From: an uncultured Bacilli bacterium
Lineage (GTDB): Bacteria; Bacillota_I; Bacilli_A; RF39; UBA660
NCBI GenBank assembly: GCA_944371315.1
Contig: CALVXN010000003.1
Span: forward strand, 508-64,507
Reading direction: 5' to 3'
DNA length: 64,000 nucleotides
The position numbers were made by a program, and so were the translations under genes. The notes under the pieces were generated by a model. It worked only from the letters and a program-made list of their open reading frames with translations, did no database searches and was not told where the DNA came from. Shown piece by piece: positions 2,550-58,374 of this stretch (its first letter is position 1; the number at the start of each line of letters is the position of its first letter).

Positions 2550-3491
2550 ATGAAAAATGAAATAATAATTTTTGAAAATCAAAATATTAAATTGGAGGTG
2601 AATTTCAATGATGAGACTGTATGGCTTAATCAAGCTCAAATGGCAAAACTATTTGATAAAGACAGAAAAACAATTACTAGACATATTCAAAATATATTTA
2701 GAGATGAAGAACTAGAAGAAAAAGCAGTATGCTCATTTTTTGAGCATGTTGGAAATGATGGTAAAAAATACAAAGTTCAATTTTATAATTTGGACATGAT
2801 TATCAGTGTAGGATACAGGGTTAAATCTAAAAATGGAATAATATTTAGAAGATGGGCAAATAAAATATTAAAAGATTATTTAATAAAAGGATATTCAATT
2901 AATCAAAAAAGATTAGAAGCATTAGAAAAAACTGTTAAGTTGATAAATTTAGCTGGTAGAATTGATAATAAGCTTGAAGGAACAGAAGCCCAAGACATAA
3001 TAAAAGTTATTAATAATTACTCAAATGCACTGAATTTATTAGATAATTATGATTATAAAGATATTAAAAAACCTGATGGAACTTATAATGACAAAATAAT
3101 TACTTATGATAATTGTATTGATATAATCAAAAAATTAAAATTTGATAGTAAAAGTAATTTATTTGCATTAGAAAGAAACAATGGATTAAAAGAAATAATA
3201 GGAACTATTTATCAATCTTTTGATGGAATTGACTTATACAAATCAATAGAAGAAAAAGCTGCTAACTTTTTATATTTAATAATTAAAAATCATGTATTTA
3301 TTGATGGTAATAAAAGAATTGGAGCTACATTATTTTTATATTTTTTAGATTATTACAATATTTTATATAGAAATGATAAAAAAGCCATTGATGATAATAC
3401 ATTAGTTGCAATTACATTGTTAATCGCCCAATCTAATCCAAAAGAAAAAGAAATATTAATTGATTTAGTTATGAACTTTTTAGTCAATTAA
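2550..3491 (+). CDS. RhuM-family N-terminal domain fused to a Fic/Doc (death-on-curing) domain
   Basis: The N-terminal half (WLNQAQMAKLF...FYNLDMIISVGYRVKSKNGIIFRRWA) matches the RhuM virulence-protein pattern. The C-terminal half carries the Doc motif HVFIDGNKR (nt 3291-3317). Confidence 0.8.
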   Translation: MKNEIIIFENQNIKLEVNFNDETVWLNQAQMAKLFDKDRKTITRHIQNIFRDEELEEKAVCSFFEHVGNDGKKYKVQFYNLDMIISVGYRVKSKNGIIFRRWANKILKDYLIKGYSINQKRLEALEKTVKLINLAGRIDNKLEGTEAQDIIKVINNYSNALNLLDNYDYKDIKKPDGTYNDKIITYDNCIDIIKKLKFDSKSNLFALERNNGLKEIIGTIYQSFDGIDLYKSIEEKAANFLYLIIKNHVFIDGNKRIGATLFLYFLDYYNILYRNDKKAIDDNTLVAITLLIAQSNPKEKEILIDLVMNFLVN

Positions 3492-22156: not shown

Positions 22157-22573
22157 TCAATTCTCTTCCTTTTTATTAGCATTTTCTCTATCCTTAAATA
22201 TTTTTAAAATACCAATTAAAGTATTTACTTTATTGGTTAAATATCTTTTTTCAAAATTTGATAACTTACCAACCTCAAATTTTTCACCATTTTTTTCAAC
22301 TTCACCCTGTAAGTTAACTCCTATTACATTAAGTTCGTCTTGAATTAACAATTGTAAAAAACTTATATGTGATCTATACAAAACACCCGGCTTATCTTCA
22401 AGGTTTTCAGTTTTCAAAATACTACTCATACTAGGTTGTTTTTTACTAAACAAGTAACCATCAACAATTAATTGCAAAATAATATTAAATTGTTCCGTAT
22501 TTCCATTTAATACTTCGATACTTTCGATTAATTCATTTAAGATATCGTCAATATTATTATTTCCAGTACCCAC
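22157..22573 (-). CDS. hypothetical cytoplasmic protein at the end of the T7SS cargo operon (candidate immunity protein or chaperone)
   Basis: GTG start 7 nt after AAAGGAGG. 138 aa with no signal peptide or TM segment. The role is inferred from position only. Confidence 0.45.
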   Translation of the reverse strand: MGTGNNNIDDILNELIESIEVLNGNTEQFNIILQLIVDGYLFSKKQPSMSSILKTENLEDKPGVLYRSHISFLQLLIQDELNVIGVNLQGEVEKNGEKFEVGKLSNFEKRYLTNKVNTLIGILKIFKDRENANKKEEN

Positions 22574-22590
22574 AAATAAACCTCCTTTTA

Positions 22591-23175
22591 TTATTTTATA
22601 GAACTTGTGACATAATTAACAACATCATTATCATATTGAAAACCACCCAAAGATTGTGTGCCACTTGCAAAAGAATTACTTGATGCATCAGGACTAAAAG
22701 ACCAATGAGCTCCCAATTTATCTCTTATAGCATCATAAGTACTTAGATAGCCATTATTGCTATTTGAATTGCTAGATGATGTTACATTATCTTTAAATAC
22801 TTGCGAAATATTGTCTTTTCTTTCACCAGTTAAATTTGTATTAACTTCAATACCAGATAAATTTTGCATTTTAACAATAACATCACTTATTTTTTTTACA
22901 GCATCTTGAACAGAAGAATCATAACTTGCTATTTGATAAAACAAAAATTGTTCTAATTCAGGTAATCTAGTAGAAAGATTTTTTGAAATAGTAGTCACAC
23001 CATCACTAATTTGATTAACATACATATTAATCCTTGAAGATTGAACATTAGCTAAAATTTCTTTTAAACCAGAATTTAGTTTAGGTAAATAGTTGTTAAT
23101 TAAAGAATCATCTAACGAGGAAATATCAGTATTTAAAGCACTCAATGCTTCGGGATCTAAATTAATTAATGCCAT
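22591..23175 (-). CDS. putative T7SS substrate: helical N-terminal domain plus Ser/Asn/Gly-rich C-terminal region (194 aa)
   Basis: Strong SD AGGAGGTG. About 105 aa of helical sequence ends in L-S-G (aa 106-108), followed by an SSSNSNSNNG linker and an unrecognised tail of about 60 aa. Sits downstream of the WXG100-like genes. Confidence 0.45.
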   Translation of the reverse strand: MALINLDPEALSALNTDISSLDDSLINNYLPKLNSGLKEILANVQSSRINMYVNQISDGVTTISKNLSTRLPELEQFLFYQIASYDSSVQDAVKKISDVIVKMQNLSGIEVNTNLTGERKDNISQVFKDNVTSSSNSNSNNGYLSTYDAIRDKLGAHWSFSPDASSNSFASGTQSLGGFQYDNDVVNYVTSSIK

Positions 23176-23188
23176 ACTTTAACACCTC

Positions 23189-23506
23189 CTATAAACCTTC
23201 TAATATTTTACCAACTTCATCTAAATATTCAGTTGCTTCTGTATTAGCTTGACCGTAAAGATTAATTTGTGTATTTAAAAATTCTATTAATTTTGTTAAT
23301 AAAGAACTAGTATCACTATATACTTTATTGCAATAATTAATATAGCTAGATAAAGTTCCAACCATTACGTCACTTTTTATATTTCCAGAAATAGAATTAA
23401 ATAAATTTGAATCTTCAATAGCAATTTTTTGAATTTGTTCTAAAATACCTTGCAATTCATTATTTTTATTTTTTAATTCTGTCGATAAGACATTAATTGT
23501 TGCCAT
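23189..23506 (-). CDS. small alpha-helical T7SS-associated protein (about 105 aa, no WXG)
   Basis: Start ATG 23506 lies 5 nt after AGGTGG. Size and helical-hairpin character resemble WXG100 partners or LXG-associated helper proteins. Confidence 0.5.
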   Translation of the reverse strand: MATINVLSTELKNKNNELQGILEQIQKIAIEDSNLFNSISGNIKSDVMVGTLSSYINYCNKVYSDTSSLLTKLIEFLNTQINLYGQANTEATEYLDEVGKILEGL

Positions 23507-23795
23507 TTGTTCCACCTACCGTCTTTTTACTTAAATCATTTACAATATTAATATAATTAATTATAGCTGATGAAAATTCAGAATTACATGAAGAAATTGC
23601 ATTTACTAATTCTTGATTTTTTCTTAAATTGGTATTATAAGAAATAGCATCACTTTGAGTGCCTTCCCAAAGGGGAGCTAATTCGCTTAAAATATATGCA
23701 ATTGACGAACTTATTTCATTCATCTTTTCAGAATTTGAAATCAAGCTATTTGCATCCTCTATAACTTTTTCAGTATTATTTATAATTATCGCCAT
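23493..23795 (-). CDS. WXG100-family protein (EsxA-like)
   Basis: 100 aa with a central W-E-G (LAPLWEGTQSD) between two helical halves, SD AGAGAGGT. Confidence 0.7.
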   Translation of the reverse strand: MAIIINNTEKVIEDANSLISNSEKMNEISSSIAYILSELAPLWEGTQSDAISYNTNLRKNQELVNAISSCNSEFSSAIINYINIVNDLSKKTVGGTNGNN

Positions 23796-23816
23796 TTTTA
23801 ACCTCTCTTATTTAAT

Positions 23817-24134
23817 TTAATCAATACTTTGCGAAGAAGCATTTTTTAATCTTTGAGCATATGTATTTAAAGCTTGATTTAATTGTTTTACAGCCGAAAT
23901 TAAATTTACTAAACTATTAGTATTTTTTTGTGCCTCTCCAATATAAGAATCTTTATCAACAGTATCTGAATTCCAATAACTCTCTATTTTTTTAAATTTA
24001 TTATCTAAATTAGAACAACATTCATTTATTCTATCATTTATTTTAGATATATTATCAATTTGCGCTAACAACATATCTACATTCTTAACATTAATATGTT
24101 CATAATAATCTTTATAGCCATTAAAATTAGCCAT
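23817..24134 (-). CDS. WXG100-like protein with a variant central motif
   Basis: 105 aa, central ESYWNSD (W-N-S instead of W-x-G), helical halves, SD AGGAGATGA. First gene after the internal promoter. Confidence 0.55.
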   Translation of the reverse strand: MANFNGYKDYYEHINVKNVDMLLAQIDNISKINDRINECCSNLDNKFKKIESYWNSDTVDKDSYIGEAQKNTNSLVNLISAVKQLNQALNTYAQRLKNASSQSID

Positions 24135-24160
24135 ATTTAATCATCTCCTACTCTATAAAA

Positions 24161-24189
24161 AGTATACTTTATAATATAATATCTGTCAA
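24161..24189 (-). promoter_or_regulatory. internal promoter of the five-gene cargo cluster
   Basis: Minus strand: TTGACA (24184-24189), 17 nt, TATACT (24161-24166), within the 110-bp gap after the YukD-like gene. Confidence 0.55.
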
Positions 24190-24244
24190 TATAACTCCTG
24201 TCATCACAACAAAACTAAAGAATCCCATTTTTTTTACACTTACA

Positions 24245-24499
24245 TTAAATAATTATAACCGAACTTCCATTTCTAATATTTGTTTCCCTAACCAATTTAT
24301 TTAAAGGATATGGATTAGCATCAACAATGTTATATAAATTTCGATTATTTTTTATTTCATAAATCCCATCAGAAATGTCATATAATATACGATTTATCAA
24401 GTTTAAAACAGTTCCAACTCTCACATTTATAGGAATAAAAATATCATATGTTTCATCCATTTCTAAAACCAATAATTTAATAAGAATTTTATTATTCAT
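24245..24499 (-). CDS. esaB: YukD/EsaB-like ubiquitin-fold T7SS protein
   Basis: About 84 aa, beta-grasp-like pattern (ILIKLLVLEMDETYDIFIPINVRVGTVL...RETNIRNGSSVIII). ATG 24499 lies 5 nt after GGTGA and overlaps the essC stop by 8 nt. Confidence 0.65.
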   Translation of the reverse strand: MNNKILIKLLVLEMDETYDIFIPINVRVGTVLNLINRILYDISDGIYEIKNNRNLYNIVDANPYPLNKLVRETNIRNGSSVIII

Positions 24500-27400
24500 T
24501 TTGATCACCACTATCTAGCATATAACGAATAATTTCATAAGATTCTCCACTTACTTTATAAGCTAAATGTTCAAATTTTATCTTTTTATCATTATAACCA
24601 ATATTTGGAGCGTGAATAGTAATTTGATTATTTATTCCTTCTCCTAACCATAAAGCATTATTTCTATCATAAGAAATATCCATTCTAACCTGATTTATGT
24701 CATCAACATTATCAAAAATTATTACATTTTTACACTTTTTACTAATAAAATCTGTAATCATATTACAATCATTATTATTAAACATTTCTTTTATTGCTCC
24801 AACACCCAATACTATTGTCCAACTATCAAGCCCTGCATAATTATTAATAAAATTTTGAAAATTATTAGTCATAACTTCAACATTATCAAAGCTCTTTTTA
24901 ATCATTGATTTAAAGTCTAAAACATAAACCATATTTTTACTAGCCATCATTTTAATAAAAGCATTTAAAAAACTTAATTTATTATCATCTAAATTAGTAT
25001 ATGAAATAACATAAGGTTTGGTATTTTGTTTAGTTATAAAACTAACTCTTTTAGTTTTCATATTAAATCCAATAGGAACACTATTGAAATCTTTATAATA
25101 GCTATATAACATATCAACATAAACTCGATCAGGAACAGAAGGAATTTTACTTACTTTAGTATTATATTTTTCATTTAAAACAAGTCCTAAATTTCTAAGT
25201 TCACTAGTATAATTTTGAATTTTAGTATATGTTCCAGTTTGAAATTCATACGCACTATTATCAATTAAAACTAATCCTCGTCCAAAATATTCAGCTGGTA
25301 ACACTTGTCTTGGTGCATTCAAAATCATTCTATAATCAGTTTCATCAGAAAGTTGTAAACAAATTTTATTATTAAAGTAAGCCATTGTTTTACTCCTAAT
25401 AACTGAAGTTGAAATTGCAGTTACTACAAATACAATTCCATATTTATAACCGTCTCTAAATAAAGTAGCCATTTCTTGACTTTCATCATCATAAGATTCA
25501 ACAAATGAATCAAAATTATTAACAAATATCAACATTAATGGCAATTTTTTACCACTATATTTTATGTAATCATTATAGTCCCCAGCATAGTCTGTAAATA
25601 AACTTTTTCTTTTTTCTATTTCTTCTGAAATCATTTTTATTAAATCTTGTATCTTTTCGTTATTTTCAATAGTTACAACTTCCCCAACATGTGGAAAATT
25701 TGTAAAAATTTTTAATAATTCAGAGCCACAATCTAAAATATAAATATTAACTTCATTTGGTGAATGATCCATTACAATAGATCTTATCATATTAACTACT
25801 AAATTTTCTTTTCCACTACCAGGAGTTCCAAAAACTATTAAATTTCCATTTTTAGATAAATCAATACTTAGAAGCCCTTGTGTTTGATTTATTGGATCAT
25901 CATATTCTCCAATAACAGGATTTATATAATATTCAACTGGTTTATAATTATATTTTTTCTTAATATCATCAACATAAATAATTTCAGGAATAGAATCAAG
26001 CCATAATTTATTAATTGTAATATGTTCCTTTTTACCTAAATCCGAAATATATCTAACAATATTTGTTAATTGATCTCCATAATCTTTTTTAGGAATACTT
26101 TCTTTGTCTTCTTCTTTAACACTTTTTATAATATATCCAACATTATTAATGAAATTAATAGATTCATCTACTTTTTTTAAAATTTTATCTGACGGAACAT
26201 ATTTTGCCCCAGACCAACCAGATTGCCCAATTTCAAATAATTCATCATAACCTACTTGCAAATAAAATCTACCGGTTTCTTTAATAGATGCCGCTTCTGG
26301 TCTTTTTAACATTTCCATACTATCTGACTTATCTTGAACTTTAAGACAAACTTTAAATCTTGAGTTAGCCCATATTTGATCATTTACAATACCTGATGGC
26401 TTTTGAGTAGCTAAAATTAAATGAACACCCAATGAACGACCTATACGTGAAGTGCTTATCAATTGTTGCATAAAGTCTGGTTGTTGTTGTTTTAATTCAG
26501 CAAATTCATCACAAATTATGAATAAATGTGATAAAGGTTTATTTACTATTCCTTCTCTAAATAATTTTTGATATTTATAAATATCAATTGTTCCTTCTTT
26601 TAATCTTTCACGAGTATCATTAAATATTTTTTGCCTTCTAGTTAACTCACTTTGAATAGAAATTAAACTTCTATTAAGTTCATGATTATCTAAGTTAGTA
26701 ATAGTTCCAGCTAAATGTGGAATTTTAACTCCGCTCTCTTTATTTTCAAACGCACCAGCTAATCCCCCACCCTTATAGTCAATTAAAACAAATTGAACTT
26801 CATAAGGATGATAATTAATTGCCATAGATAATATATAAGTTATAATGAATTCAGACTTACCACTACCGGTTGAACCAGCAATTAAACCGTGAGGTCCGTG
26901 AAACTTTTCATGTAAATCTAATTTAAAATCTTCACCATTAGGATGAACTCCAACAACAGTATCTAAACTTAATACTGGATTATTAATTTTCCACCTATTT
27001 AAGATATTTAATTGCTCAATTTTTGAAACATTAAACATATCCAAAAAATCAAGAGATTTAGGTAAAACTGACGCACCATCCTTAGTCATTACAGGAATAT
27101 TTGCTAAATTAAATGCTATTGCATCCATGTCAAGATCATTTTTTTGTTTTTCAATATAAAATATTGTTTGTTCATTTAACCCTGTTTGGCGTTCTAAAAT
27201 TACCCCATCTTTTTCCCTAACCTCAATAAATGTATTGCTTGATGACGGAACATTTTTTAAATCATCATCTATTACTAGCAAAGAAAAACCTAAACTATTT
27301 AAATCTTTATTAATAAAATCTTCAAAAAATCCAATATTTCTTTTATTTGAATAATCATCTGTAATAACTAAAAAATAAGGCATTGGAACAACATCTTTAT

Positions 27401-29009
27401 TATTACTTTCTTCCTTTTGTTCCTTTCTAAATTTAATTATTTCTTCCAAATAATTTGATACATATTTTGCTTCATTATCATTTGAAGCAAATAACCTTAT
27501 ATCTTTTTCATCAGTAAATATATGTGGAATATATTTGATAAAATCCCACCTTTGAATATTTTCATTTTTTGTAAATAAAGCAATTTTTAAATCAATGCTA
27601 CTATGTGTAATTATTAATTGAGTAATAAGCTCATTAACAAACTTAACTCTATTAATTGTTTTACAAATTAAAGATGTTACATTACTATTTTTTAATGATA
27701 CAGTAATTGGAGCACCATCAACATATTTGTATTTATCTTTAATAGCACAAGAATTATTAAATAACTCGTCTTCTTCTAATGTAAAATGTTTTTCTGGAGC
27801 TTTTACTGCTACATTAAAGTTTTTTCTACCAATACCTACTCTAATAGATAAGAATTCATCATCATTATATTGACACCACCAAAAATTGCGATTTTTCTTT
27901 TGCAAAGCAATTAAACAATTATCAGAATTCAAATAATTTTCATTTAAAACTCGTAATTGATTTTTAACTTTAATTGTTAATTCTCTATCTTTTTCTGTTA
28001 AATATTCACCATATTTTTCTTTCCTTAATTTTTCTCTTTTTTTAAGTTTGTGCTTTTGATAAGCCCGAGTGATCCTAGGAAATACAAGACTTCCTAAAAT
28101 CATACATACACACATTACAATTTGAGGTATCATTTGTATCATGTCTCTACCTTGATTTAAACCGTAAGAAACATTAAATAACATCATAAAAGAAGAAGAC
28201 ATCATAATTAAAGAAGTTCCCATAGTCAAAATAAATGGCATAGAATTGTCTTTTTCTTCATTTGGAGGAGCTTCAACAGTAAATTCTTCATTAACAACTT
28301 TTTCTCGAATTATTGGATAATGGACAAAATAATTTTCTTTTTTATAAAGTTCTACATGTTTATCTTCTTCACTAACTGGGTCAAATACAAGTGGATTATC
28401 ACTAGCATCTGCAACCAAACGCATTCCAGTAATTTTCAATGAATTTTTAGGATTATTTATATAAATATATGATTGCATCCACACAATTTTTATTCCACCT
28501 AAAAATATAATGTCACCAGATTTTAGTTTTTTTATATTTTCCTTAAAATTATTTACAAACACTTTATAATTATCATCACTAACACTAGTAACATACCATT
28601 CTTCATTAATGATTTTAAAAGTTGCTTCAATTTCAGCTACTTCATTAGAATTATAAAAAATACTACAATTTTCTTTTCTACCAACTGAAAAACTATTTAG
28701 TCCTCTAAAATCTAATCTAAATAACTTTTCTTTAATAGGAAGAACAAACACTTCTAATGTTTTTGATTTACCAACAACTTTTAAGGTATATTTGCAATAT
28801 GGTTCAATCAAAACTGAATCAATCTCTTCATTATCCTCTATTATATTTGTATTACCATTACTTTTTAAATACCATCTATTATTAACTCCTACAAACGAAA
28901 CAATAGACTTAAAGGTTGAACTATTATAATTAATTAAAAAAGAGTCATCAACTTTTAATGGTAACATATATTTAATAATCTGATTATTATCTATTAAAAA
29001 TATTTTCAT
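24492..29009 (-). CDS. essC: T7SSb FtsK/SpoIIIE-family ATPase EssC/YukB
   Basis: Two FHA-like N-terminal modules (aa 1-190) and two TM segments (aa about 260-315). D1 has GSTGSGKS (nt 26853-26876) and ICDEFAE. D2 has GTPGSGKE (nt 25806-25829). The D3-like C-terminus has no P-loop. ATG 29009 is preferred over the track TTG at 29018. Extended -10 TGtTATAAT at 29039-29047. Confidence 0.9.
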   Translation of the reverse strand: MKIFLIDNNQIIKYMLPLKVDDSFLINYNSSTFKSIVSFVGVNNRWYLKSNGNTNIIEDNEEIDSVLIEPYCKYTLKVVGKSKTLEVFVLPIKEKLFRLDFRGLNSFSVGRKENCSIFYNSNEVAEIEATFKIINEEWYVTSVSDDNYKVFVNNFKENIKKLKSGDIIFLGGIKIVWMQSYIYINNPKNSLKITGMRLVADASDNPLVFDPVSEEDKHVELYKKENYFVHYPIIREKVVNEEFTVEAPPNEEKDNSMPFILTMGTSLIMMSSSFMMLFNVSYGLNQGRDMIQMIPQIVMCVCMILGSLVFPRITRAYQKHKLKKREKLRKEKYGEYLTEKDRELTIKVKNQLRVLNENYLNSDNCLIALQKKNRNFWWCQYNDDEFLSIRVGIGRKNFNVAVKAPEKHFTLEEDELFNNSCAIKDKYKYVDGAPITVSLKNSNVTSLICKTINRVKFVNELITQLIITHSSIDLKIALFTKNENIQRWDFIKYIPHIFTDEKDIRLFASNDNEAKYVSNYLEEIIKFRKEQKEESNNKDVVPMPYFLVITDDYSNKRNIGFFEDFINKDLNSLGFSLLVIDDDLKNVPSSSNTFIEVREKDGVILERQTGLNEQTIFYIEKQKNDLDMDAIAFNLANIPVMTKDGASVLPKSLDFLDMFNVSKIEQLNILNRWKINNPVLSLDTVVGVHPNGEDFKLDLHEKFHGPHGLIAGSTGSGKSEFIITYILSMAINYHPYEVQFVLIDYKGGGLAGAFENKESGVKIPHLAGTITNLDNHELNRSLISIQSELTRRQKIFNDTRERLKEGTIDIYKYQKLFREGIVNKPLSHLFIICDEFAELKQQQPDFMQQLISTSRIGRSLGVHLILATQKPSGIVNDQIWANSRFKVCLKVQDKSDSMEMLKRPEAASIKETGRFYLQVGYDELFEIGQSGWSGAKYVPSDKILKKVDESINFINNVGYIIKSVKEEDKESIPKKDYGDQLTNIVRYISDLGKKEHITINKLWLDSIPEIIYVDDIKKKYNYKPVEYYINPVIGEYDDPINQTQGLLSIDLSKNGNLIVFGTPGSGKENLVVNMIRSIVMDHSPNEVNIYILDCGSELLKIFTNFPHVGEVVTIENNEKIQDLIKMISEEIEKRKSLFTDYAGDYNDYIKYSGKKLPLMLIFVNNFDSFVESYDDESQEMATLFRDGYKYGIVFVVTAISTSVIRSKTMAYFNNKICLQLSDETDYRMILNAPRQVLPAEYFGRGLVLIDNSAYEFQTGTYTKIQNYTSELRNLGLVLNEKYNTKVSKIPSVPDRVYVDMLYSYYKDFNSVPIGFNMKTKRVSFITKQNTKPYVISYTNLDDNKLSFLNAFIKMMASKNMVYVLDFKSMIKKSFDNVEVMTNNFQNFINNYAGLDSWTIVLGVGAIKEMFNNNDCNMITDFISKKCKNVIIFDNVDDINQVRMDISYDRNNALWLGEGINNQITIHAPNIGYNDKKIKFEHLAYKVSGESYEIIRYMLDSGDQNE

Positions 29010-29071
29010 ACTATTCAACCTACTCTTTATACACTATTATTATAACAAATTAAAAAACTTAAAACAATATC

Positions 29072-30229
29072 TTATAACGCCTTAATTTCTCTTTTAGTCT
29101 TATTTATTTCATTTTCTATTTTTACCCTTTGAACTAAAAATAACATTACAATAATATTTACTGTAAAACTTCCACCGTAGCTTAATAAAGGCAATGGAAC
29201 TCCAGTTAAAGGAATTAGTGCTAAAACCCCCAATAAATTAATTAAAATATGCAAAGTCAAAAACCAAAAAGTTCCATAAGCAATAACAGAACATCTTAAA
29301 TTTTCAGAATTTCTTGCAATCTTTAAAATACGCAATAACATAATAAAATAAGCAACAATAATAAATATTCCAAATATAAGACCTAATTCTTCAACTATAA
29401 TTGGATAAATAAAATCTGTATGACTTTCTGGTAAATATAAATATTTTTGAGTTGAATTTCCTAATCCTACCCCCAAAAGCCCTCCATTATTAATCGCAAT
29501 AAATCCATTGCAAACTTGATACCCAGTAGTTTCTGTATATCTTGAACAAGGGTTTTGAAAAGTTAATCTATCCATTTGCATACTATTCAAAATATCGTTT
29601 CCAGAATATAAAATAACAATAACTCCCAATACAATTGCTACTGCAAATATTTTTATAAATTTTAATAAATTATTTTGAACGATTGGAATACTTATAAATG
29701 TCAAAAATACAATACCACCAATAATTGCAGCGCTTCCTAAATCTGGTTGCATAGCAACTAACCCTGCAATAATTACACCAAAACCTAAAGGAATTAAATA
29801 AGAATATATATTTTTCACCTTACGATAATAAAGTTTATTATAATAAACTGCAGAAAAAACAATTAAAATAGATTTAGCAAATTCACTAGGTTGCAAACTA
29901 AAAAACTTTAAATCATACCAACTAATAGCATTATTTGTAATTTTACCATTAACAAAAAGATATATTAATGAAATAATTATAATAATAACAGCTGGCCAAG
30001 CTAATGCTTGATACGTTCTAGTAGGAACTCGTAATATAAAAATAAAGCAAAATATTAAAGACACTAATACAAATATTGCTTGGCGAATAAAAAAATGATA
30101 TGGCTCATATCCATAACGAACAACACTAGAAACACTAGAAGCACTATAAATCATTACTAAACCAACAACAATAAAAAAAATTGTTAAAAGTAATAATGGT
30201 ATATCCATTTTTGAAAACAACTTTCGCAT
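29072..30229 (-). CDS. SEDS-family peptidoglycan polymerase (FtsW/RodA)
   Basis: About 10 TM segments, with QPSEFAK, PESHTDFI and GVPLPLLSYGGS motifs. Confidence 0.88.
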   Translation of the reverse strand: MRKLFSKMDIPLLLLTIFFIVVGLVMIYSASSVSSVVRYGYEPYHFFIRQAIFVLVSLIFCFIFILRVPTRTYQALAWPAVIIIIISLIYLFVNGKITNNAISWYDLKFFSLQPSEFAKSILIVFSAVYYNKLYYRKVKNIYSYLIPLGFGVIIAGLVAMQPDLGSAAIIGGIVFLTFISIPIVQNNLLKFIKIFAVAIVLGVIVILYSGNDILNSMQMDRLTFQNPCSRYTETTGYQVCNGFIAINNGGLLGVGLGNSTQKYLYLPESHTDFIYPIIVEELGLIFGIFIIVAYFIMLLRILKIARNSENLRCSVIAYGTFWFLTLHILINLLGVLALIPLTGVPLPLLSYGGSFTVNIIVMLFLVQRVKIENEINKTKREIKAL

Positions 30230-40317: not shown

Positions 40318-40869
40318 CTAAATTTTATACATTTTTTTGTTCTTTTTAGATACGAAGTAAATTACTGCAGCAGCACCAACTCCACATGTAAGTATAGCAA
40401 CAGGAAGTGCAGCACCAGTAGAAGGTTCATCTGGTTCTTCAACGGTCATTTCGTATTCAACACCTTCTAGTTTAAATTTACCACTACAATTTACAGCACT
40501 ATCTTCTAATTCTAAAACCAATGTTCCTAATTCAACCTTAGAAGTAGTAATCTCTTTAAGATTAGTAAATTTCATTGAGATTACATTTCCTTCTCTAGAA
40601 GATTCAACATCGAAATCATCATTTGCTGGAGTTAAACTTTTTAATGTTACCTTATCAGCATCACCAGTTAATGTAAGTGTAATGTCAGTTACCTTCAATT
40701 CAGCCAAACTAGTATTTTCTGTAACATAAATTTTACAAGTTTGTTCACATTTACCAGTATCTTCATTTCGACAACTTTTTTCACAATCCCAATCTAATTT
40801 TAATGCACTAGCACTCATTGGTAAAATTGCAAATACTCCAATAGCTAAAAAACTCAATAATTTTTTCAC
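40318..40869 (-). CDS. cell-wall-anchored surface protein with a noncanonical EPSTG sorting signal
   Basis: Signal peptide (M)KKLLSFLAIGVFAILPMSASA. Cys-rich N-terminus and a beta-rich middle. C-terminal EPSTG (nt 40414-40428), hydrophobic stretch and SKKNKK tail. GTG start 40869 lies 4 nt after GGAGAG. Confidence 0.6.
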   Translation of the reverse strand: MKKLLSFLAIGVFAILPMSASALKLDWDCEKSCRNEDTGKCEQTCKIYVTENTSLAELKVTDITLTLTGDADKVTLKSLTPANDDFDVESSREGNVISMKFTNLKEITTSKVELGTLVLELEDSAVNCSGKFKLEGVEYEMTVEEPDEPSTGAALPVAILTCGVGAAAVIYFVSKKNKKMYKI

Positions 40870-40999
40870 ACACATCTCTCCTATCTATATTATGCCTAAA
40901 TTATAACATAAAAATACAAAAAACAACATATTTTTATAAAAATTATACTAAAATGTGTAAATATGTGTTATCATATTAAAGAAAATAAAGGTGGTTTCC

Positions 41000-42580
41000 A
41001 TGAAAAAAATTGTAATAAAAATCAAAGAAAATAGCCTAATTATAAAAGAAAGAATAAAATTAACAAATGAATATAAAAATATAATTAATACAAATGTTAT
41101 AAGTTGCAATGAATTAGTATTTTCAGACGAATACATAATTAACAATAAAAAAATAGTAACAACATTTTTAAATGAAATAATAAATAATTATAATGTTAAT
41201 ACATTAATAATAGACAATAACTATTTTGCTAAAATATTTTTAGAAATAATAAAAAACAATAAAAATATAGTTAATTTATTATTAAATGAAGAAAATACCA
41301 TTACATTTTCAATATGTGAAAAAATAATGCATACTTATATTAAAAATGTAAGTTGTTATGCTATACAACCATTTATGATTGAATATTTAGATAAATACGA
41401 TATTATGGTGGAATCCAGAAATGAAATACTTTTTTTATCAAATTTTATGCTAGATAACAATTTAAATCAATTTTCAAGTTTATTTTATAAAGCCTCATTA
41501 AAAATAAATTTCCCTATGACAGATCAGGATGAACAAGATTTTATGGCATTTTGCAACATAAACAAGTATTTAAAAGTTATAAATGTAACAACAGTTAACA
41601 AAAATGATCTAGAATTTATTATTAAAACATTAAAATCAAATAACAAAAAAAACATAAAAATACTTATACATGAAAACATAACAAATGAGGAAATAATAAA
41701 TTATTTAAAAACATACAATAAAAGATATAGTAAAAAAAATAAAATTTACTTTAAGCTAAAATACAGCAATGAATATTTAAACAATAATCTTTTTAAACAA
41801 ACAAATTACTCAATATTAAAAACTTGTGGTTATCTTATAATATTAATAGTTTTATTTACTTTTGGATATGTATTTTATGATAATTATAATTCTATGCAAA
41901 AAGTATCAAATATACAAGAAGATATTAAAAAAGTAATTGAAATCAACGACTCAGAAGATATAATGAATGAACTTAACTCTAATAAAACAGAAAATGATAA
42001 AATTGTTGTTAATGAAGACATAGCAAGTTTAATCAATATAAATCCTGAGGCTGTTGGATGGTTAAAAGTAAATAATACTAATATAGATTACCCAGTTGTT
42101 CAAACAATAGACAATCAATATTATTTAAATCATAATTTTTATTTAGAAGAAGACAAAAATGGCTGGGTATTTATGGATTATAGGAATGACTCTAAATATT
42201 TGAGTGATAATATAATAATATATGCACATAATCGTTATAATAGTGGTGTTATGTTTGGAACGCTACAAAATACATTTAGATATAATTGGTATACCAACCC
42301 AGACAATCAAATCATAACATTAAAAACTTTATATGAAACATTAGAATATCAAGTTTTTTCAATTTATAAAATAGCAGTAACAACTGATTATTTAAAAACC
42401 ATATTTAAAGACGATAATGACCGTTTGGAATTTTATTCAATGTTAAAGGAAAGAAGTATATATAACTTTAATGTAGAAATAACTGGAAAAGATAAAATCA
42501 TAACGTTATCAACATGTGCGGATGAAAATAATAGATATGTTTTACATGCAGTTTTAAAAGAAGAAACTAACAAAAATTAG
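41000..42580 (+). CDS. srtB: class B sortase with a cytoplasmic N-terminal extension of about 270 aa
   Basis: The C-terminal half matches SrtB: VGWLKVNNTNIDYPVVQTIDNQYYLNHNF, IIIYAHNR (His), TLSTC (Cys codon 42515-42517), RYVLHA (Arg). The single TM segment is at aa about 275-296 of the track ORF. ATG 41000 lies 5 nt after AAAGGTGG. Confidence 0.8.
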   Translation: MKKIVIKIKENSLIIKERIKLTNEYKNIINTNVISCNELVFSDEYIINNKKIVTTFLNEIINNYNVNTLIIDNNYFAKIFLEIIKNNKNIVNLLLNEENTITFSICEKIMHTYIKNVSCYAIQPFMIEYLDKYDIMVESRNEILFLSNFMLDNNLNQFSSLFYKASLKINFPMTDQDEQDFMAFCNINKYLKVINVTTVNKNDLEFIIKTLKSNNKKNIKILIHENITNEEIINYLKTYNKRYSKKNKIYFKLKYSNEYLNNNLFKQTNYSILKTCGYLIILIVLFTFGYVFYDNYNSMQKVSNIQEDIKKVIEINDSEDIMNELNSNKTENDKIVVNEDIASLININPEAVGWLKVNNTNIDYPVVQTIDNQYYLNHNFYLEEDKNGWVFMDYRNDSKYLSDNIIIYAHNRYNSGVMFGTLQNTFRYNWYTNPDNQIITLKTLYETLEYQVFSIYKIAVTTDYLKTIFKDDNDRLEFYSMLKERSIYNFNVEITGKDKIITLSTCADENNRYVLHAVLKEETNKN

Positions 42581-42619
42581 TTTCTCCTTTTTTAATTTTT
42601 AACAAAATTTAGAAAATAA

Positions 42620-43402
42620 TTATATAACTTGTGAACTCTTCCAATGAAAATTACCATCTTCATATATAAATGTATGTTCATAAGTAATTAAAGAGTTTTT
42701 ATATGAATCAATATTTATTGAACTATTATATTTTATTTTATTATTTAATTTACTTAATTTATCGTCATTATAACAATTTAAACTATTAATATCACATTTT
42801 AAATAATAATCATATATTTTAACAGTTTGATTATTATCAGTTACAGCATATCTTAACATTTCTTTAAATACAACCTCATTATTATCTTTACTTTCATTAT
42901 TAGTATAAACATAGTAATACATTTTATTAGCATCTAACTTGAAAAAGGTATTTATATTATAAGTAAAATCAATTAAATTAAGTTTTTCATTTTTACCAAA
43001 AATAATTTTAAATACTTTTTCAAATTCTGTGATTTTTATTTTATATAACGGAGTAATACCATTTTGATTATTAATAATATTATTATTTAACAATTCATCA
43101 ATAGTAGTAATTTCCAATTCAAATTCATCATAAGTTTTTATATATTCATAAACCATAATTAATATTGAATCGTAACTTAAACTATTATAAGAAGCATAAT
43201 TACCATTATACATAGAAGTTACCTTAGAAGCATTTACATCAATTAAATAACTATATAATTTTAAAACTAATTCCTCATTAATTTCACTTGAAGAATCATT
43301 ATTTTTATTAGATTCAAAACCAAAAAATTTCACAAAACCTAGACAAATAACCACAACCAAAATAAATACTAACAAATACATTACAACTTTTCGCTTATTC
43401 AT
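42620..43402 (-). CDS. hypothetical signal-anchored protein (260 aa)
   Basis: N-terminal anchor MNKRKVVMYLLVFILVVVICLGF, extracytoplasmic remainder. No family recognised. Confidence 0.45.
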   Translation of the reverse strand: MNKRKVVMYLLVFILVVVICLGFVKFFGFESNKNNDSSSEINEELVLKLYSYLIDVNASKVTSMYNGNYASYNSLSYDSILIMVYEYIKTYDEFELEITTIDELLNNNIINNQNGITPLYKIKITEFEKVFKIIFGKNEKLNLIDFTYNINTFFKLDANKMYYYVYTNNESKDNNEVVFKEMLRYAVTDNNQTVKIYDYYLKCDINSLNCYNDDKLSKLNNKIKYNSSINIDSYKNSLITYEHTFIYEDGNFHWKSSQVI

Positions 43403-43481
43403 TTTATCATCCTCAAAAAAATTTTACCATTTAATATTAATAAAAACAACACTAAATAAAAAAAGATGCAATTAAACATCT

Positions 43482-44951
43482 TTACTGTGCAGAGGAATTA
43501 CTACAACTATATCCAAGGTCTTTATAATAAGTATTAAAAGAAGAATAAGCAATAGGAAAAGTTCCCCCAAAGTCATTATTTAATGTATCTAAACTTAAAT
43601 CAGTTGAAATTTTTAAAGTTAAATTTTTATCATCATAAAAAGCTAACCCACTTATATTATCAAAACTTATTAAATAATTTTTATCTTTAACAACTTCATT
43701 ATATTCATCTTTATCATTAAAAACATAAGTATATATTCTTCTTGAAAAACCAATATATGAAAGCCCAGCATCTACATAACCTAAAGGCAGCAAATCAGTA
43801 ACAGTTTTTGTAGCATTATAATTATTTAATTCAGTTGCTTTAGATGAACAACTTGTATAATAACGAATTTCATTATTTGAAACATATAATTCACCTTGAA
43901 CATTTACATTATTATTATATTTATCAGATACAATTAAATCGATTTTATAAGGACCACCAGCACTTGTTAAATACCCTTCAACAATATCAGAGTCTTTAAA
44001 AGAAACATTACAATCAGAAATATCTTCACAAGATTCAATAAAATCATTAGCATCTATATTAGAATTTATTTCTTTGTATACAGGTTTTAATAATACCGAA
44101 GGAGCATCTATATCATTAACCGTAATTTTACCAGTAAAAGTTTTATTATCACAAACTATTTTATATTCATAATCCCCAATTTCATTTGAATTTACATTAG
44201 GTAATACCAACTTACAACTATCTTTTTTTCCACCACTTATAGTGGCATAATCATTTATATTATCAGATAAAGTATCACCTAAATTTAATTTAACATCTTT
44301 TAAAGTTACTTTTACTGAGCTAATTTTAAGAAAATAATACACGCCAAAAGCCACTAAACATATTAACAAAATAATAATAATTACAAAAAGTGGTTTACTA
44401 ATCTTTTTCTTTTTATTATTTGAATTATTTGATGGAGGAACCATTCCAATATTTTCTACTTTATTTGGTTCTACAAATCCATTACTATTTACATTTAATG
44501 TTCCTAGCGTTTGAGCACCAACACCAACGGTATCATTAGTTAAACTACTTGCCTGATACTCATTTTCAGTTCCAGGAATAACTTGTAAAACTGGCTCATT
44601 AGAAACAACATTATTTTGTAAGTTTTGATTTAAATCACTATTTAATGACTCAACAGCACCATTTTGAACACTATTTAAATTATTATTTTGAATAGTTTGA
44701 TTTAAACCACTATCTAATGATTCAACAGAACTACTTTGATTTATATCTAAAACAGTATTTTGATTTAAATTATTCAATTCATTATTAATAGCTGTATTTT
44801 GACTTAAACCATTGGTATTTAAGTTATTTTGCAAATTACTATTAATACCATTATCCAATGTAGGAATTTGATTTCCTTCATTTAATGTTGGATTATTTTG
44901 TATTCCATTATTTAAATTATTGTTAATATTATTTGAATTTTGTCCATCCAT
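43482..44951 (-). CDS. bitopic protein: Asn/Gln-rich repetitive N-terminus, TM segment, extracellular Ig-like region
   Basis: About 170 aa of N/Q-rich sequence with a VESL(D/N)S.LNQ..QNN repeat, then KKKKISK plus a TM segment, then DIDAPSV... (Ig-like, weak recognition). Terminator hairpin overlaps the stop. Confidence 0.5.
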   Translation of the reverse strand: MDGQNSNNINNNLNNGIQNNPTLNEGNQIPTLDNGINSNLQNNLNTNGLSQNTAINNELNNLNQNTVLDINQSSSVESLDSGLNQTIQNNNLNSVQNGAVESLNSDLNQNLQNNVVSNEPVLQVIPGTENEYQASSLTNDTVGVGAQTLGTLNVNSNGFVEPNKVENIGMVPPSNNSNNKKKKISKPLFVIIIILLICLVAFGVYYFLKISSVKVTLKDVKLNLGDTLSDNINDYATISGGKKDSCKLVLPNVNSNEIGDYEYKIVCDNKTFTGKITVNDIDAPSVLLKPVYKEINSNIDANDFIESCEDISDCNVSFKDSDIVEGYLTSAGGPYKIDLIVSDKYNNNVNVQGELYVSNNEIRYYTSCSSKATELNNYNATKTVTDLLPLGYVDAGLSYIGFSRRIYTYVFNDKDEYNEVVKDKNYLISFDNISGLAFYDDKNLTLKISTDLSLDTLNNDFGGTFPIAYSSFNTYYKDLGYSCSNSSAQ

Positions 44952-56865: not shown

Positions 56866-58344
56866 TTAAATAACAATAGCAATTAATGTATTAGAACCTT
56901 TATTTACAATTTTTGTAATGGTTTCTTTTAATTTATATCTAGTATTATCAGGCATCATACTTAATTTAGCCTGAATACCTTCTTGAACTATGTTTTCTAA
57001 ACTTCGTCCAAAAATTTCACTTTTCCAGATACTTGATGCATCAGTTTCATAATCTTTCATCAAGCGATTTATTAACTCTTTAGATTGTAGTTCACTACCA
57101 ATTATAGGTTCAAAAGTAGATTCAACATCAACTTTAAGCATATGAATACTTGAAGCTACAGCTTTTAGTTTAACACCATAACGATTTCCTTGTTTAACTA
57201 ATTCTGGTGTTTCCAACTTTAATTCTTTAAGTGTTGGATAAACAATCCCATAGCCGGCACTTTTAGCCATTTTCACTGCTTGTTTTAACGAATCCATTTC
57301 TTCCTTAGTTTCTGTATAAGAAGCAAAGATTTTAAGTAATCCTGCTTTTGTGGTAATCATATTTCCCATGAATGATTTTAAAGTTTCTTGATAAAGTTCA
57401 TTAGAGCTTTCTAAATTAATTGTAACTGTCCCTGTTGCAGCATCTAATTCACTTATATAAGCAGAAGATATATATAAAGAATCATTAAAATGCTCAAGTA
57501 TAAAATCAATATCTTTTACTTTTTCTACACTTATTACACTTTCTCTAATTTTTTCTAAATAATGTGCTTTTATTTCATGATTATTAGATAATACATGAAC
57601 CCATTCTGGAATAGATACTTTAATATCTAAAACCGGGAATTCATAAAGCGCAGTTTTTAATATCTCCATTATTTCTTTTTCATTCATTAACTCAGCACTA
57701 ATAGGAACTACTGGAACTTCATAAGTTTCACTAAGATTTCTTGCTAAACTTACTGTTTCAGTATTAGTTGGATGAATACTGTTTAAAATTACGATGAAAG
57801 GTTTACCAATATTTTTAAGTTCACCTATAACCTTTTCTTCTGCTTCCAGATATGAATTTCTATTAATTTCACCAAATGAACCATCCGTCGTTACAACTAT
57901 ACCAATAGTTGCATGATCTTTAATAACTTTTTCAGTTCCTATTTCTGCTGCTTCAACAAAAGGAATAGCATCTTCAAACCATGGACTTTTTACCATCCTT
58001 GGATTTCCATCTTCATCAACAAAGCCATTGGCTTCGGGAATGACATAACCAACACAATCAACTAATTTGATACTTGTTTCAAATTCATTAATTTTAATAG
58101 TTGCACCATTACTAGGAACAAATTTAGGTTCAGTAGTCATGATAGTTTTACCCTGTGCTGATTGGGGAATCTCATCTAAACAACGTTTTTTTTCATATTC
58201 ATCAGTTATATTAGGAACAACTAAATTTTCAATAAAACGTTTTATAAATGTCGATTTCCCGGTCCTAACTGCCCCAACTACCCCTAAATATATTTCTCCG
58301 TTACCACGCTTTGCTATTGAAGATATAATTTTTTCTTTTTCCAT
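56866..58344 (-). CDS. spoIVA: stage IV sporulation protein A (spore-coat basement-layer ATPase)
   Basis: IYLGVVGAVRTGKSTFIKRF...DEIPQSAQGKTIMTTEPKFVP closely follows Bacillus SpoIVA. Adjacent to hup as in B. subtilis. ATG 58344 lies 6 nt after AGGTG. Confidence 0.93.
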   Translation of the reverse strand: MEKEKIISSIAKRGNGEIYLGVVGAVRTGKSTFIKRFIENLVVPNITDEYEKKRCLDEIPQSAQGKTIMTTEPKFVPSNGATIKINEFETSIKLVDCVGYVIPEANGFVDEDGNPRMVKSPWFEDAIPFVEAAEIGTEKVIKDHATIGIVVTTDGSFGEINRNSYLEAEEKVIGELKNIGKPFIVILNSIHPTNTETVSLARNLSETYEVPVVPISAELMNEKEIMEILKTALYEFPVLDIKVSIPEWVHVLSNNHEIKAHYLEKIRESVISVEKVKDIDFILEHFNDSLYISSAYISELDAATGTVTINLESSNELYQETLKSFMGNMITTKAGLLKIFASYTETKEEMDSLKQAVKMAKSAGYGIVYPTLKELKLETPELVKQGNRYGVKLKAVASSIHMLKVDVESTFEPIIGSELQSKELINRLMKDYETDASSIWKSEIFGRSLENIVQEGIQAKLSMMPDNTRYKLKETITKIVNKGSNTLIAIVI

Positions 58345-58374
58345 AACCCACACCTATCTTTCGTTATCTACTTA

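Follow-up and report, generated by a model that had tools for sequence, protein, structure and literature searches.

The compact type VII secretion system (T7SS) gene cluster described here occupies positions 22157-29009, with all its genes on the minus strand, of a 64,000-nucleotide stretch of DNA from an uncultured Bacilli bacterium (contig CALVXN010000003.1; the whole stretch is called the window below). Sequence comparison and structure prediction make it probable that the cluster encodes a functional T7SS, of a compact and unclassified subtype that is related to T7SSe and T7SSd and not to T7SSb. The conserved machinery encoded in cis is limited to a membrane ATPase and a ubiquitin-like protein (Ubl), and we consider it likely that these two make up the conserved machinery as a whole, possibly with lineage-specific extras. 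The features by which a T7SS is broadly recognized are present, namely an EccC/EssC-family membrane ATPase, a Ubl and, on moderate evidence, WXG100 proteins. As the initial annotation of the window had described, an EssC gene, an 84-aa gene and five small genes follow one another on the minus strand. Between 22157 and 29009 they leave no intergenic room for hidden small open reading frames (ORFs). In the direction of transcription, the genes of the cluster are the following.

24492..29009, minus strand: essC, an EssC/TsxC-type T7SS ATPase of 1,505 aa counted from the ATG (TIGR03928, FtsK_SpoIIIE)
24245..24499, minus strand: Ubl of 84 aa, of the TsxB/TseB/YukD/EsaB class (AF2 model, TseB homology)
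23817..24134, minus strand: 105-aa WXG100-like protein with YWNSD in place of WxG (WXG100 matches below cut-off)
23493..23795, minus strand: 100-aa WXG100-like protein with a true W-E-G motif, LWEGTQ (motif, hhalign)
23189..23515, minus strand: 108-aa helical protein of the WXG100 superfamily by hhalign, 105 aa from the ATG
22591..23175, minus strand: 194-aa protein with an N-terminal WXG100/LXG-like helical domain and a Ser/Asn-rich C-terminal part
22157..22573, minus strand: 138-aa protein with no family match, which follows the 194-aa-type gene in relatives

The ATPase, the ubiquitin-like protein and the small proteins

Comparison of the window EssC with one genome per GTDB species returned 77 loci, all from metagenome-assembled genomes (MAGs), which were viewed at ±10 kb on contigs that are short. 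Close relatives, at 55-91% identity, bear the labels uncultured Bacilli, 'Tenericutes' or Candidatus Onthocola; the others, at 36-42% identity, belong mostly to Clostridia of the human, chicken, rabbit and ruminant gut. ORFs were called and clustered across the loci and the clusters were linked by profile searches; 65 loci have a full-length ATPase. The Ubl gene lies directly downstream of essC on the same strand in 58 of these 65. WXG100-superfamily genes, including a tandem WXG100 that passes Pfam, occur in 47 of the 65, and DUF4176 genes in 20 loci. Within six genes of the ATPase, no family of transmembrane (TM) proteins recurs in more than four of these 65 loci. Matches to the Ubl led to two additional, independently sampled contexts with Pfam annotation, which are compact too and have housekeeping flanks. 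The comparison of architectures across related genomes that the initial annotation had called for thus identifies compactness as a trait of the clade, which we refer to as the compact clade. The chromosomal contexts of the cassette vary (FtsW/SDR in the window, reverse transcriptase/MutS in L079-82, RF-1/ThrRS in L085), which is consistent with a self-contained module. A search of plasmids returned distant EssC genes only.

The product of essC exceeds the cut-off of the NCBIfam model TIGR03928 (941 bits; cut-off 778) and matches Pfam FtsK_SpoIIIE at 8e-47. Its layout comprises FHA1 (residues ~1-100), FHA2 (~100-200), two TM segments (~259-315), a DUF domain and three P-loop modules. Foldseek with an AF2 model of residues 1-260 (pLDDT ~90 over 1-200) gave as best match the tandem FHA of B. 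subtilis YukB (9qks_H, E 1e-8), which belongs to the cryo-electron microscopy (cryo-EM) structure of the B. subtilis T7SSb core unit (PDB 9qks), and it also matched the EssC N-terminal crystal structures 5fwh and 1wv3. A profile of the FHA2 region matches the classical FHA of GarA/OdhI at E 6e-9; Pfam FHA stays below its cut-off for the window EssC, whereas every TseC homologue has a precomputed hit. The earlier description of a 1,505-aa EssC with two FHA-like modules and two TM segments therefore holds, on the grounds of TIGR03928, the structural matches of the model and the hydrophobic segments. As start codon we use the ATG at 29009, in agreement with public gene calls, and reject the TTG at 29018 with which the ORF list begins, because the exact protein is on record only with the ATG start, and then solely in metagenome assemblies.

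A canonical Walker A motif is found in D1 only (GSTGSGKS, with lysine K718 in the 1,505-aa numbering), and it is invariant across the compact clade. The lysine had been named K721 before; the residue is present, but it carries that number only when counted from the TTG. In D2 the motif is degenerate (GSGKE; window 25806-25829, EssC residues 1061-1068), and the same GSGK-E is shared by nearly the whole compact clade, compared with GSGK-S in L053 and L066 and GSGK-T in TseC, so that it constitutes a clade-specific substitution at the Mg-coordinating residue. No Walker A was found in D3 of the window EssC, and it is missing there in TseC as well. Purifying selection on EssC and the Ubl is strong: relative to L002, whose EssC is 91% identical, EssC has a dN/dS of 0.07 and the Ubl one of 0.02, and the 4.5-kb essC ORF is intact in DNA of 25% G+C.

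The ATG of the Ubl gene overlaps the stop codon of essC (ATGAATAA). The 84-aa protein of the window has no match in Pfam or NCBIfam, 25 of 67 members of its family match PF08817 YukD weakly, and a search of PDB sequences with the family profile gave nothing useful. Its AF2 model (pLDDT 94) adopts a beta-grasp fold, for which Foldseek ranks two ubiquitin-like domains highest among PDB structures, that of EccD5 in the ESX-5 complex and that of EccD1. The protein is 32% identical to Neobacillus TseB from a genuine T7SSe locus (E 5e-12), and tblastn with this TseB matches the window gene together with about 70 loci. Start/stop overlap, fold and TseB homology together substantiate the YukD-like gene coupled to EssC that had been proposed. 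A word-indexed homologue search with the single 84-aa query found 17 close matches, whereas the family profile retrieved 1,646 clusters at 90% identity from a collection of 5.8 billion proteins; these clusters come mostly from metagenome assemblies and include TseB of genuine T7SSe. None of the 120 profile matches listed has a Pfam domain, and the few that are named are called 'hypothetical'.

Profile comparisons place four of the five small proteins in the WXG100 superfamily with moderate confidence. The 105-aa protein matches Pfam WXG100 (5.9e-5) and TIGR03930 (6.5e-5), both below cut-off. The 100-aa family reaches 67% in hhalign with WXG100 proteins of T7SSe loci and 94.8% with the 105-aa family, and these two proteins are likely heterodimer partners that form a TsxA1/A2-like pair. 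The 108-aa family aligns over its full length with the T7SSe WXG100 set (hhalign 83%) and with the N-terminus of the 194-aa family (93.5%), and its profile links it to a superfamily that has a genuine tandem WXG100 among its members (which passes Pfam with 48 bits); it is a candidate Lap-like partner of the 194-aa protein. The latter, whose family ranges from 129 to 348 aa in relatives, belongs to no family of Pfam or NCBIfam and is a candidate secreted effector. The 138-aa family is present in eight loci, always inside the T7SS cluster, and the window protein matches neither the Pfam/NCBIfam libraries nor the WXG profiles; from its position, we regard it as a candidate immunity protein or chaperone. 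The small helical proteins of the initial annotation are thus accounted for in four cases by links to the WXG100 superfamily, but not in the case of the 138-aa protein.

Relation to T7SSe and to the other subtypes

The initial annotation had called the locus type VIIb-like, and had derived its novelty from the lack of EssA, EssB and EsaA. This lack is confirmed for the whole 64 kb. A Pfam scan of 30 window ORFs, which included all unannotated and membrane ones and set aside about 25 obvious housekeeping ORFs, found no YukC (PF10140), EssA, EsaA, Pkinase, PP2C or DUF6382. The annotated Listeria locus esxA-esaA-essA-esaB-essB-essC served as T7SSb query, and neither tblastn, which covered the whole window DNA, nor phmmer matched its EsaA, EssA or EssB at E<=1 in the window or in 85 loci. 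Two ORFs with a central TM segment were considered as EssB-like and rejected: the one at 43482-44951 has a low-complexity Asn/Gln-rich N-terminus, the one at 40991-42580 is a sortase with a long N-terminal extension, and neither resembles a pseudokinase. However, the survey of Garrett, Higginson and Palmer (2024, PMC11217815) described bioinformatically, from a RefSeq ATPase phylogeny and gene neighborhoods, eight further subtypes, T7SSc to T7SSj, none of which has EssA, EssB or EsaA. Because the window ATPase belongs to the TseC-side lineage, the lack of these proteins is expected and not new in itself. Most of the claimed novelty is therefore pre-empted by T7SSc-j, and what survives is narrower: the compact clade is also without the accessory genes of T7SSe, i.e. 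those for the kinase, the PP2C, the DUF6382-FHA protein, the TM proteins and the giant Ig-like protein.

The placement of the ATPase does not support the T7SSb frame. Reference TsxC sequences were rebuilt from the optical character recognition (OCR) text of Fig. S2 of the survey (PMC11217815); they are partial and, except for TseC, limited to one per subtype. Against these references, the window ATPase aligns best with TseC (798 bits, 37% identity over 1,324 aa, FHA region included), followed by TsiC (602 bits), TsdC (561), TsgC (535) and TsfC (528), with S. aureus EssC below 528. TseC ranks first for all 65 full-length relatives as well, and the order of the references behind it is unchanged. 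In a neighbor-joining (NJ) tree over 1,286 aligned columns, which comprised ten references, 16 genuine TseC and 66 clade members, the compact clade and the TseC clade were each recovered in 100/100 bootstraps, and a group of compact clade, TseC and TsdC in 82/100. The mean distance in this tree was 1.16 between the compact clade and TseC, compared with 1.30 for TseC-TsdC and 1.17 for TseC-TsiC. In this NJ analysis, for which the non-TseC references are partial, the window ATPase hence falls outside the TseC clade, although TseC is its nearest relative. By the criteria of 2024, a distinct ATPase clade and gene content, the locus would be a further T7SS subtype as judged from an NJ tree with partial references. 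The clade is known from MAGs only, has no match in gene content among the subtypes of the RefSeq survey, and its ATPase lies outside the one representative of each subtype that was compared. The supplementary files of the survey bear no organism names that would show whether the clade was covered (PMC11217815).

T7SSe is the closest known system. In Bacillota it comprises TseA1, A2, B, C, D, F, H, I, J and K (PMC11217815). A TseC query found genuine TseC in Neobacillus, Ectobacillus, Sutcliffiella, Lysinibacillus and many Clostridia MAGs. Genuine T7SSe loci (L083 and L084) have the order TseC, overlapping TseB (83-84 aa), two WXG100, cargo, TseJ (DUF6382 and FHA) and TseF (PP2C), with TseJ and TseF within 10 kb downstream of TseC, and thus serve as positive controls. 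In L083, from Neobacillus, TseD (Pkinase), a 246-aa TM protein and the beginning of a giant Ig-like TseI come next, and the flank of L084 ends inside TseF. The window resembles T7SSe in its ATPase, including the FHA region, in the order C, overlapping B and WXG100 pair, in a Ubl homologous to TseB, and in LXG-like, DUF4176 and Lap-like cargo modules nearby. It differs in that the TseD kinase, the TseF PP2C, TseJ, the single-TM TseH/K and the giant TseI are not in the window, and genes of TseD/F/H/I/J/K type are also not found within ±10 kb in nearly all relatives. tblastn with TseJ, TseF, TseD, the 246-aa TM protein and TseI gave no match in the window. In the compact-clade loci, TseJ, the 246-aa TM protein and TseI had no match either, and the TseD and TseF queries, taken from Neobacillus and Clostridia, matched a PP2C and kinase pair in L027 and L073 and a PP2C only in L071. 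By size and position these genes are most likely housekeeping PrpC/PrkC. TseH and TseK are poorly conserved, so that sequence searches are weak tests for both.

Further differences from T7SSe lie in the ATPase itself, which forms a separate clade, has GSGKE and not GSGKT as D2 Walker A, and has a degenerate form of the FHA2 phosphothreonine triad that is intact in TseC. The FHA of TsdC, TseC and TsjC keeps the phosphothreonine consensus, and these systems carry kinases or phosphatases (PMC11217815). The triad GR / SxxH / NG is intact in the TseC, TsdC and TsjC references and degenerate throughout the compact clade; the window FHA2 keeps GR, followed by AxxE and NY, and in most relatives the Arg is lost as well. 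Loss of the kinase, phosphatase and FHA-protein genes together with the phosphothreonine pocket speaks for genuine disuse of the T7SSe apparatus in this part at least, as opposed to its being encoded elsewhere.

The other subtypes fit less well. T7SSg (TsgA1, A2, B, C and L), the simplest variant of 2024, shares with the window a small predicted core of two WXG100, a Ubl and an ATPase, but TsgC has no FHA, the DUF5050 beta-propeller TsgL belongs to the system, and a Tad pilus locus lies next to it (PMC11217815). The window has an FHA-bearing ATPase nearer TseC, and no TsgL-like gene was seen there, although no search with TsgL sequences was made. As for T7SSf, in which TsfC goes with TsfF, TsfJ and TsfV, TsfC scores 528 bits against 798 for TseC, and the window has neither PP2C nor DUF6382. 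T7SSa/ESX is similar in that an EccC-type ATPase is its central channel component and a ubiquitin-like domain contacts this ATPase, the N-terminal domain of EccD being the best structural match of the 84-aa protein. Unlike T7SSa/ESX, the window is without EccB, EccD, EccE and MycP, its Ubl is a free protein and its host is monoderm.

Alternative readings and points against a compact T7SS

Loss of EssA, EssB and EsaA from an Ess/Yuk-type system would yield a stripped-down T7SSb, a derivation that we find scarcely credible. As in T7SSb (Ess of S. aureus, Yuk/Yue of B. subtilis), an FtsK-like ATPase with tandem N-terminal FHA and no phosphothreonine binding stands beside a separate ubiquitin-fold protein of the YukD/EsaB kind, WXG100 and LXG-type cargo in a monoderm Bacillota host, and the ATPase passes the NCBIfam EssC model. 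However, TIGR03928 labels true TseC 'EssC' too and thus does not discriminate between subtypes, and the window, without EssA, EssB and EsaA, has the order C-B-A1-A2 of T7SSe and not that of the esxA-esaA-essA-esaB-essB-essC locus. The ATPase is also phylogenetically distant from T7SSb: S. aureus EssC is less similar to it than TseC, TsiC, TsdC, TsgC and TsfC are, the tree groups it with TseC/TsdC, and it can be aligned with Listeria EssC only from residue 214 onward, the FHA region being unalignable. It is very improbable, too, that the locus is a decaying or non-secretory remnant in which an EssC-like ATPase is being lost or is kept for another role. Such a remnant could explain why D2 and D3 are without canonical ATPase motifs and why accessory genes are not present, but TseC too has degenerate D2/D3 sites and no D3 Walker A. 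Moreover, the low dN/dS values of both genes, ORFs that are intact in 65 species, the invariant D1 Walker A and a steady co-occurrence with WXG100, DUF4176 and LXG-like genes all speak against decay.

The alternative that carries most weight, although we regard it as less probable than a compact T7SS, is a split system in which the window holds an ATPase-Ubl-substrate module and further envelope parts, TseD/F/H/I/J/K-like or analogous, are encoded elsewhere in the genome. Several observations weigh against a compact, self-sufficient T7SS, and some of them favor a split one. Every T7SS that has been studied by experiment requires membrane proteins in addition to the ATPase (PMC11217815, PMC12637312). 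No gene of the cassette would carry substrates across peptidoglycan, yet the host is walled, as shown by its FtsW, MreC, M23 peptidase and sortase genes. In the closest relative, L002, EssC and Ubl stand without a WXG cluster (L002:14496-19128), so T7SS genes can be dispersed in this lineage; this locus shares the upstream smc-ftsW synteny with the window, and its EssC-Ubl pair is followed by SpoIVB, an esterase, an acyltransferase, DUF6320 and NUDIX. Members of the clade were viewed only around the locus, within ±10 kb on short MAG contigs, where unlinked partners would have gone unseen. Neighbors that recur in subclades could be accessories, and none of them is in the window: c15 (a ParA/TadZ-like ATPase, only in one Clostridia subclade), c40, the lipoprotein c26 and c6 (a membrane-anchored 500-aa protein). 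In addition, the TsxC references are OCR-rebuilt and partial, with one sequence per subtype apart from TseC, and the roles proposed for the five small proteins are drawn from their position and from profile similarity that is weak. What argues against a split is that partners are not linked to the ATPase in the 65 species-level loci and the two extra contexts, whereas genuine T7SSe keeps them within 10 kb; that the degenerate phosphothreonine site makes use of the kinase/phosphatase/FHA trio unlikely; and that the cassette changes chromosomal context as one unit. The initial annotation had left the choice between unlinked partners and a reduced, uncharacterized architecture, and we judge these two alternatives to be the right ones. 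A compact T7SS remains our preferred reading.

Candidates for accessory parts in the neighborhood were rejected in two cases. The genes after EssC-Ubl in L002 and L011 (c97-c101) are the SpoIVB, esterase, acyltransferase, DUF6320 and NUDIX genes mentioned above, i.e. unrelated housekeeping functions, and the large proteins near EssC in L016 and L041, considered as TseI equivalents, are A2M-like or pilin/thioester adhesins. Three other kinds of neighbor were noted. The TraG/VirD4-like coupling ATPase c40 (Pfam T4SS-DNA_transf, ~540 aa) lies just upstream of a tandem-WXG gene and EssC in one Clostridia subclade (L028, L045, L048, L050 and L086; e.g. L086:1411-4342), alongside small proteins, one of them with two TM segments; this module may be a conjugative-element remnant or a subclade-specific accessory. 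The HExxH lipoprotein-like c26 (505-592 aa, weak Peptidase_M78) is located directly after the Ubl in the nearest sister group of the window lineage (L009, L011, L012, L013, L067 and L072; e.g. L011:14871-16421), on the opposite strand in L072. In several Bacilli relatives (L005, L007, L010 and L079-L082; e.g. L079:3353-5372), a reverse transcriptase gene (RVT_1, 358 aa) and ORFs of 124, 114 and 82 aa stand directly upstream of EssC, and three integrase genes adjoin in L079; the cassette could be of the diversity-generating retroelement (DGR) or retron type, linked to the T7SS locus.

Proposed mechanism and genomic setting

The TM helices of EccC line the pore of ESX-5. By analogy, the window ATPase would oligomerize, probably as a hexamer, with its TM hairpins lining a channel. 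The Ubl would dock on the FHA/DUF/D1 region and lock an assembly-competent state, as YukD does on YukB, where it contacts the FHA, the DUF and the D1 hairpin (PMC12637312). The 105-aa and 100-aa WXG100-like pair would be exported and would activate the ATPase in the manner of co-secreted TsxA1/A2-like activators, the 108-aa protein may act as a Lap-like helper of the 194-aa LXG-like effector, and the 138-aa protein would serve as immunity protein or chaperone. Assembly is predicted to proceed without phospho-regulation, unlike what is proposed for T7SSe, because the phosphothreonine residues of the FHA are lost and the cluster has no kinase or phosphatase.

More tentatively, the EssC-type ATPase and the free Ubl might form a complete minimal translocon with no other partner genome-wide, and thus an eleventh, MAG-restricted and gut-common subtype, a proposition that we consider doubtful. 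To our knowledge, it is not yet established which proteins are minimally required to take a folded WXG100 dimer through a Gram-positive membrane, and all structural and genetic T7SS work that we know of was done on ESX, Ess or Yuk, which have four to six membrane components apiece. The compact clade represents a natural reduction of this problem: it is widespread and under purifying selection, its conserved parts in cis are an ATPase and a Ubl, and it has lost the FHA phosphothreonine site along with the kinase module of its sister system. Should the cassette prove able to secrete by itself, no template for the reconstitution and cryo-EM of a T7SS channel would be simpler, and EssB, EsaA, EccD and TseI-type partners would be lineage-specific add-ons. 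If the partners are unlinked, the locus would merely add another arrangement of genes to a family that is diverse as it stands. The 1,646 unannotated Ubl clusters suggest that tools keyed to T7SSa/T7SSb accessories may under-count contact-dependent antagonism in gut Firmicutes.

The window has about 25% G+C and represents core chromosomal DNA of an uncultured Bacillota bacterium from the gut; hrcA-grpE-dnaK-dnaJ, smc and rpoBC (named from position and sequence features) and mreC and ftsW (named by Pfam) lie near the locus. The flanks and the signal-like sequences of the cluster are as follows.

29072-30229, upstream flank of essC: FtsW/RodA gene (Pfam 3.5e-77)
29039..29047, minus strand: extended -10-like element TGTTATAAT upstream of essC (consensus match read from the sequence)
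~29019-29027, minus strand: Shine-Dalgarno-like stretch AGAGTAGG after the -10-like element (read from the sequence)
24161..24189, minus strand: promoter-like TTGACA-17-TATACT, 11/12 match, in the 110-bp gap before the small genes (consensus only)
Downstream flank of the small-gene cluster: SDR gene, then a Met_gamma_lyase/YnbB-family gene (Pfam)

Pfam corroborates the SEDS (FtsW/RodA) gene that had been read upstream of the cluster and the SDR and YnbB-like genes downstream of it. The five small genes that had been placed behind a promoter are there and closely packed, but the promoter itself is weakly founded, as 77 promoter-like sites compare with 71 in shuffles, i.e. without enrichment in this AT-rich region.

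Elsewhere in the window, 2550-3491 encodes a 313-aa protein with an N-terminus of the RhuM virulence family and a Fic/DOC domain (Pfam 6e-23 and 1e-10). Within 40318-44951, a sortase domain stands behind a ~270-aa cytoplasmic extension and a TM segment (40991-42580, plus strand), flanked by unannotated secreted or membrane proteins that include a 489-aa protein with a long Asn/Gln-rich N-terminus (43482-44951). Spore formation appears to occur in the window lineage, despite the 'Tenericutes' label of some relatives in NCBI titles: the ORF at 56866-58353 seems to start like SpoIVA, with the P-loop GAVRTGKSTFIKRF, and the closest relative encodes SpoIVB (L002:14853-15830; Pfam Peptidase_S55, 1e-70).

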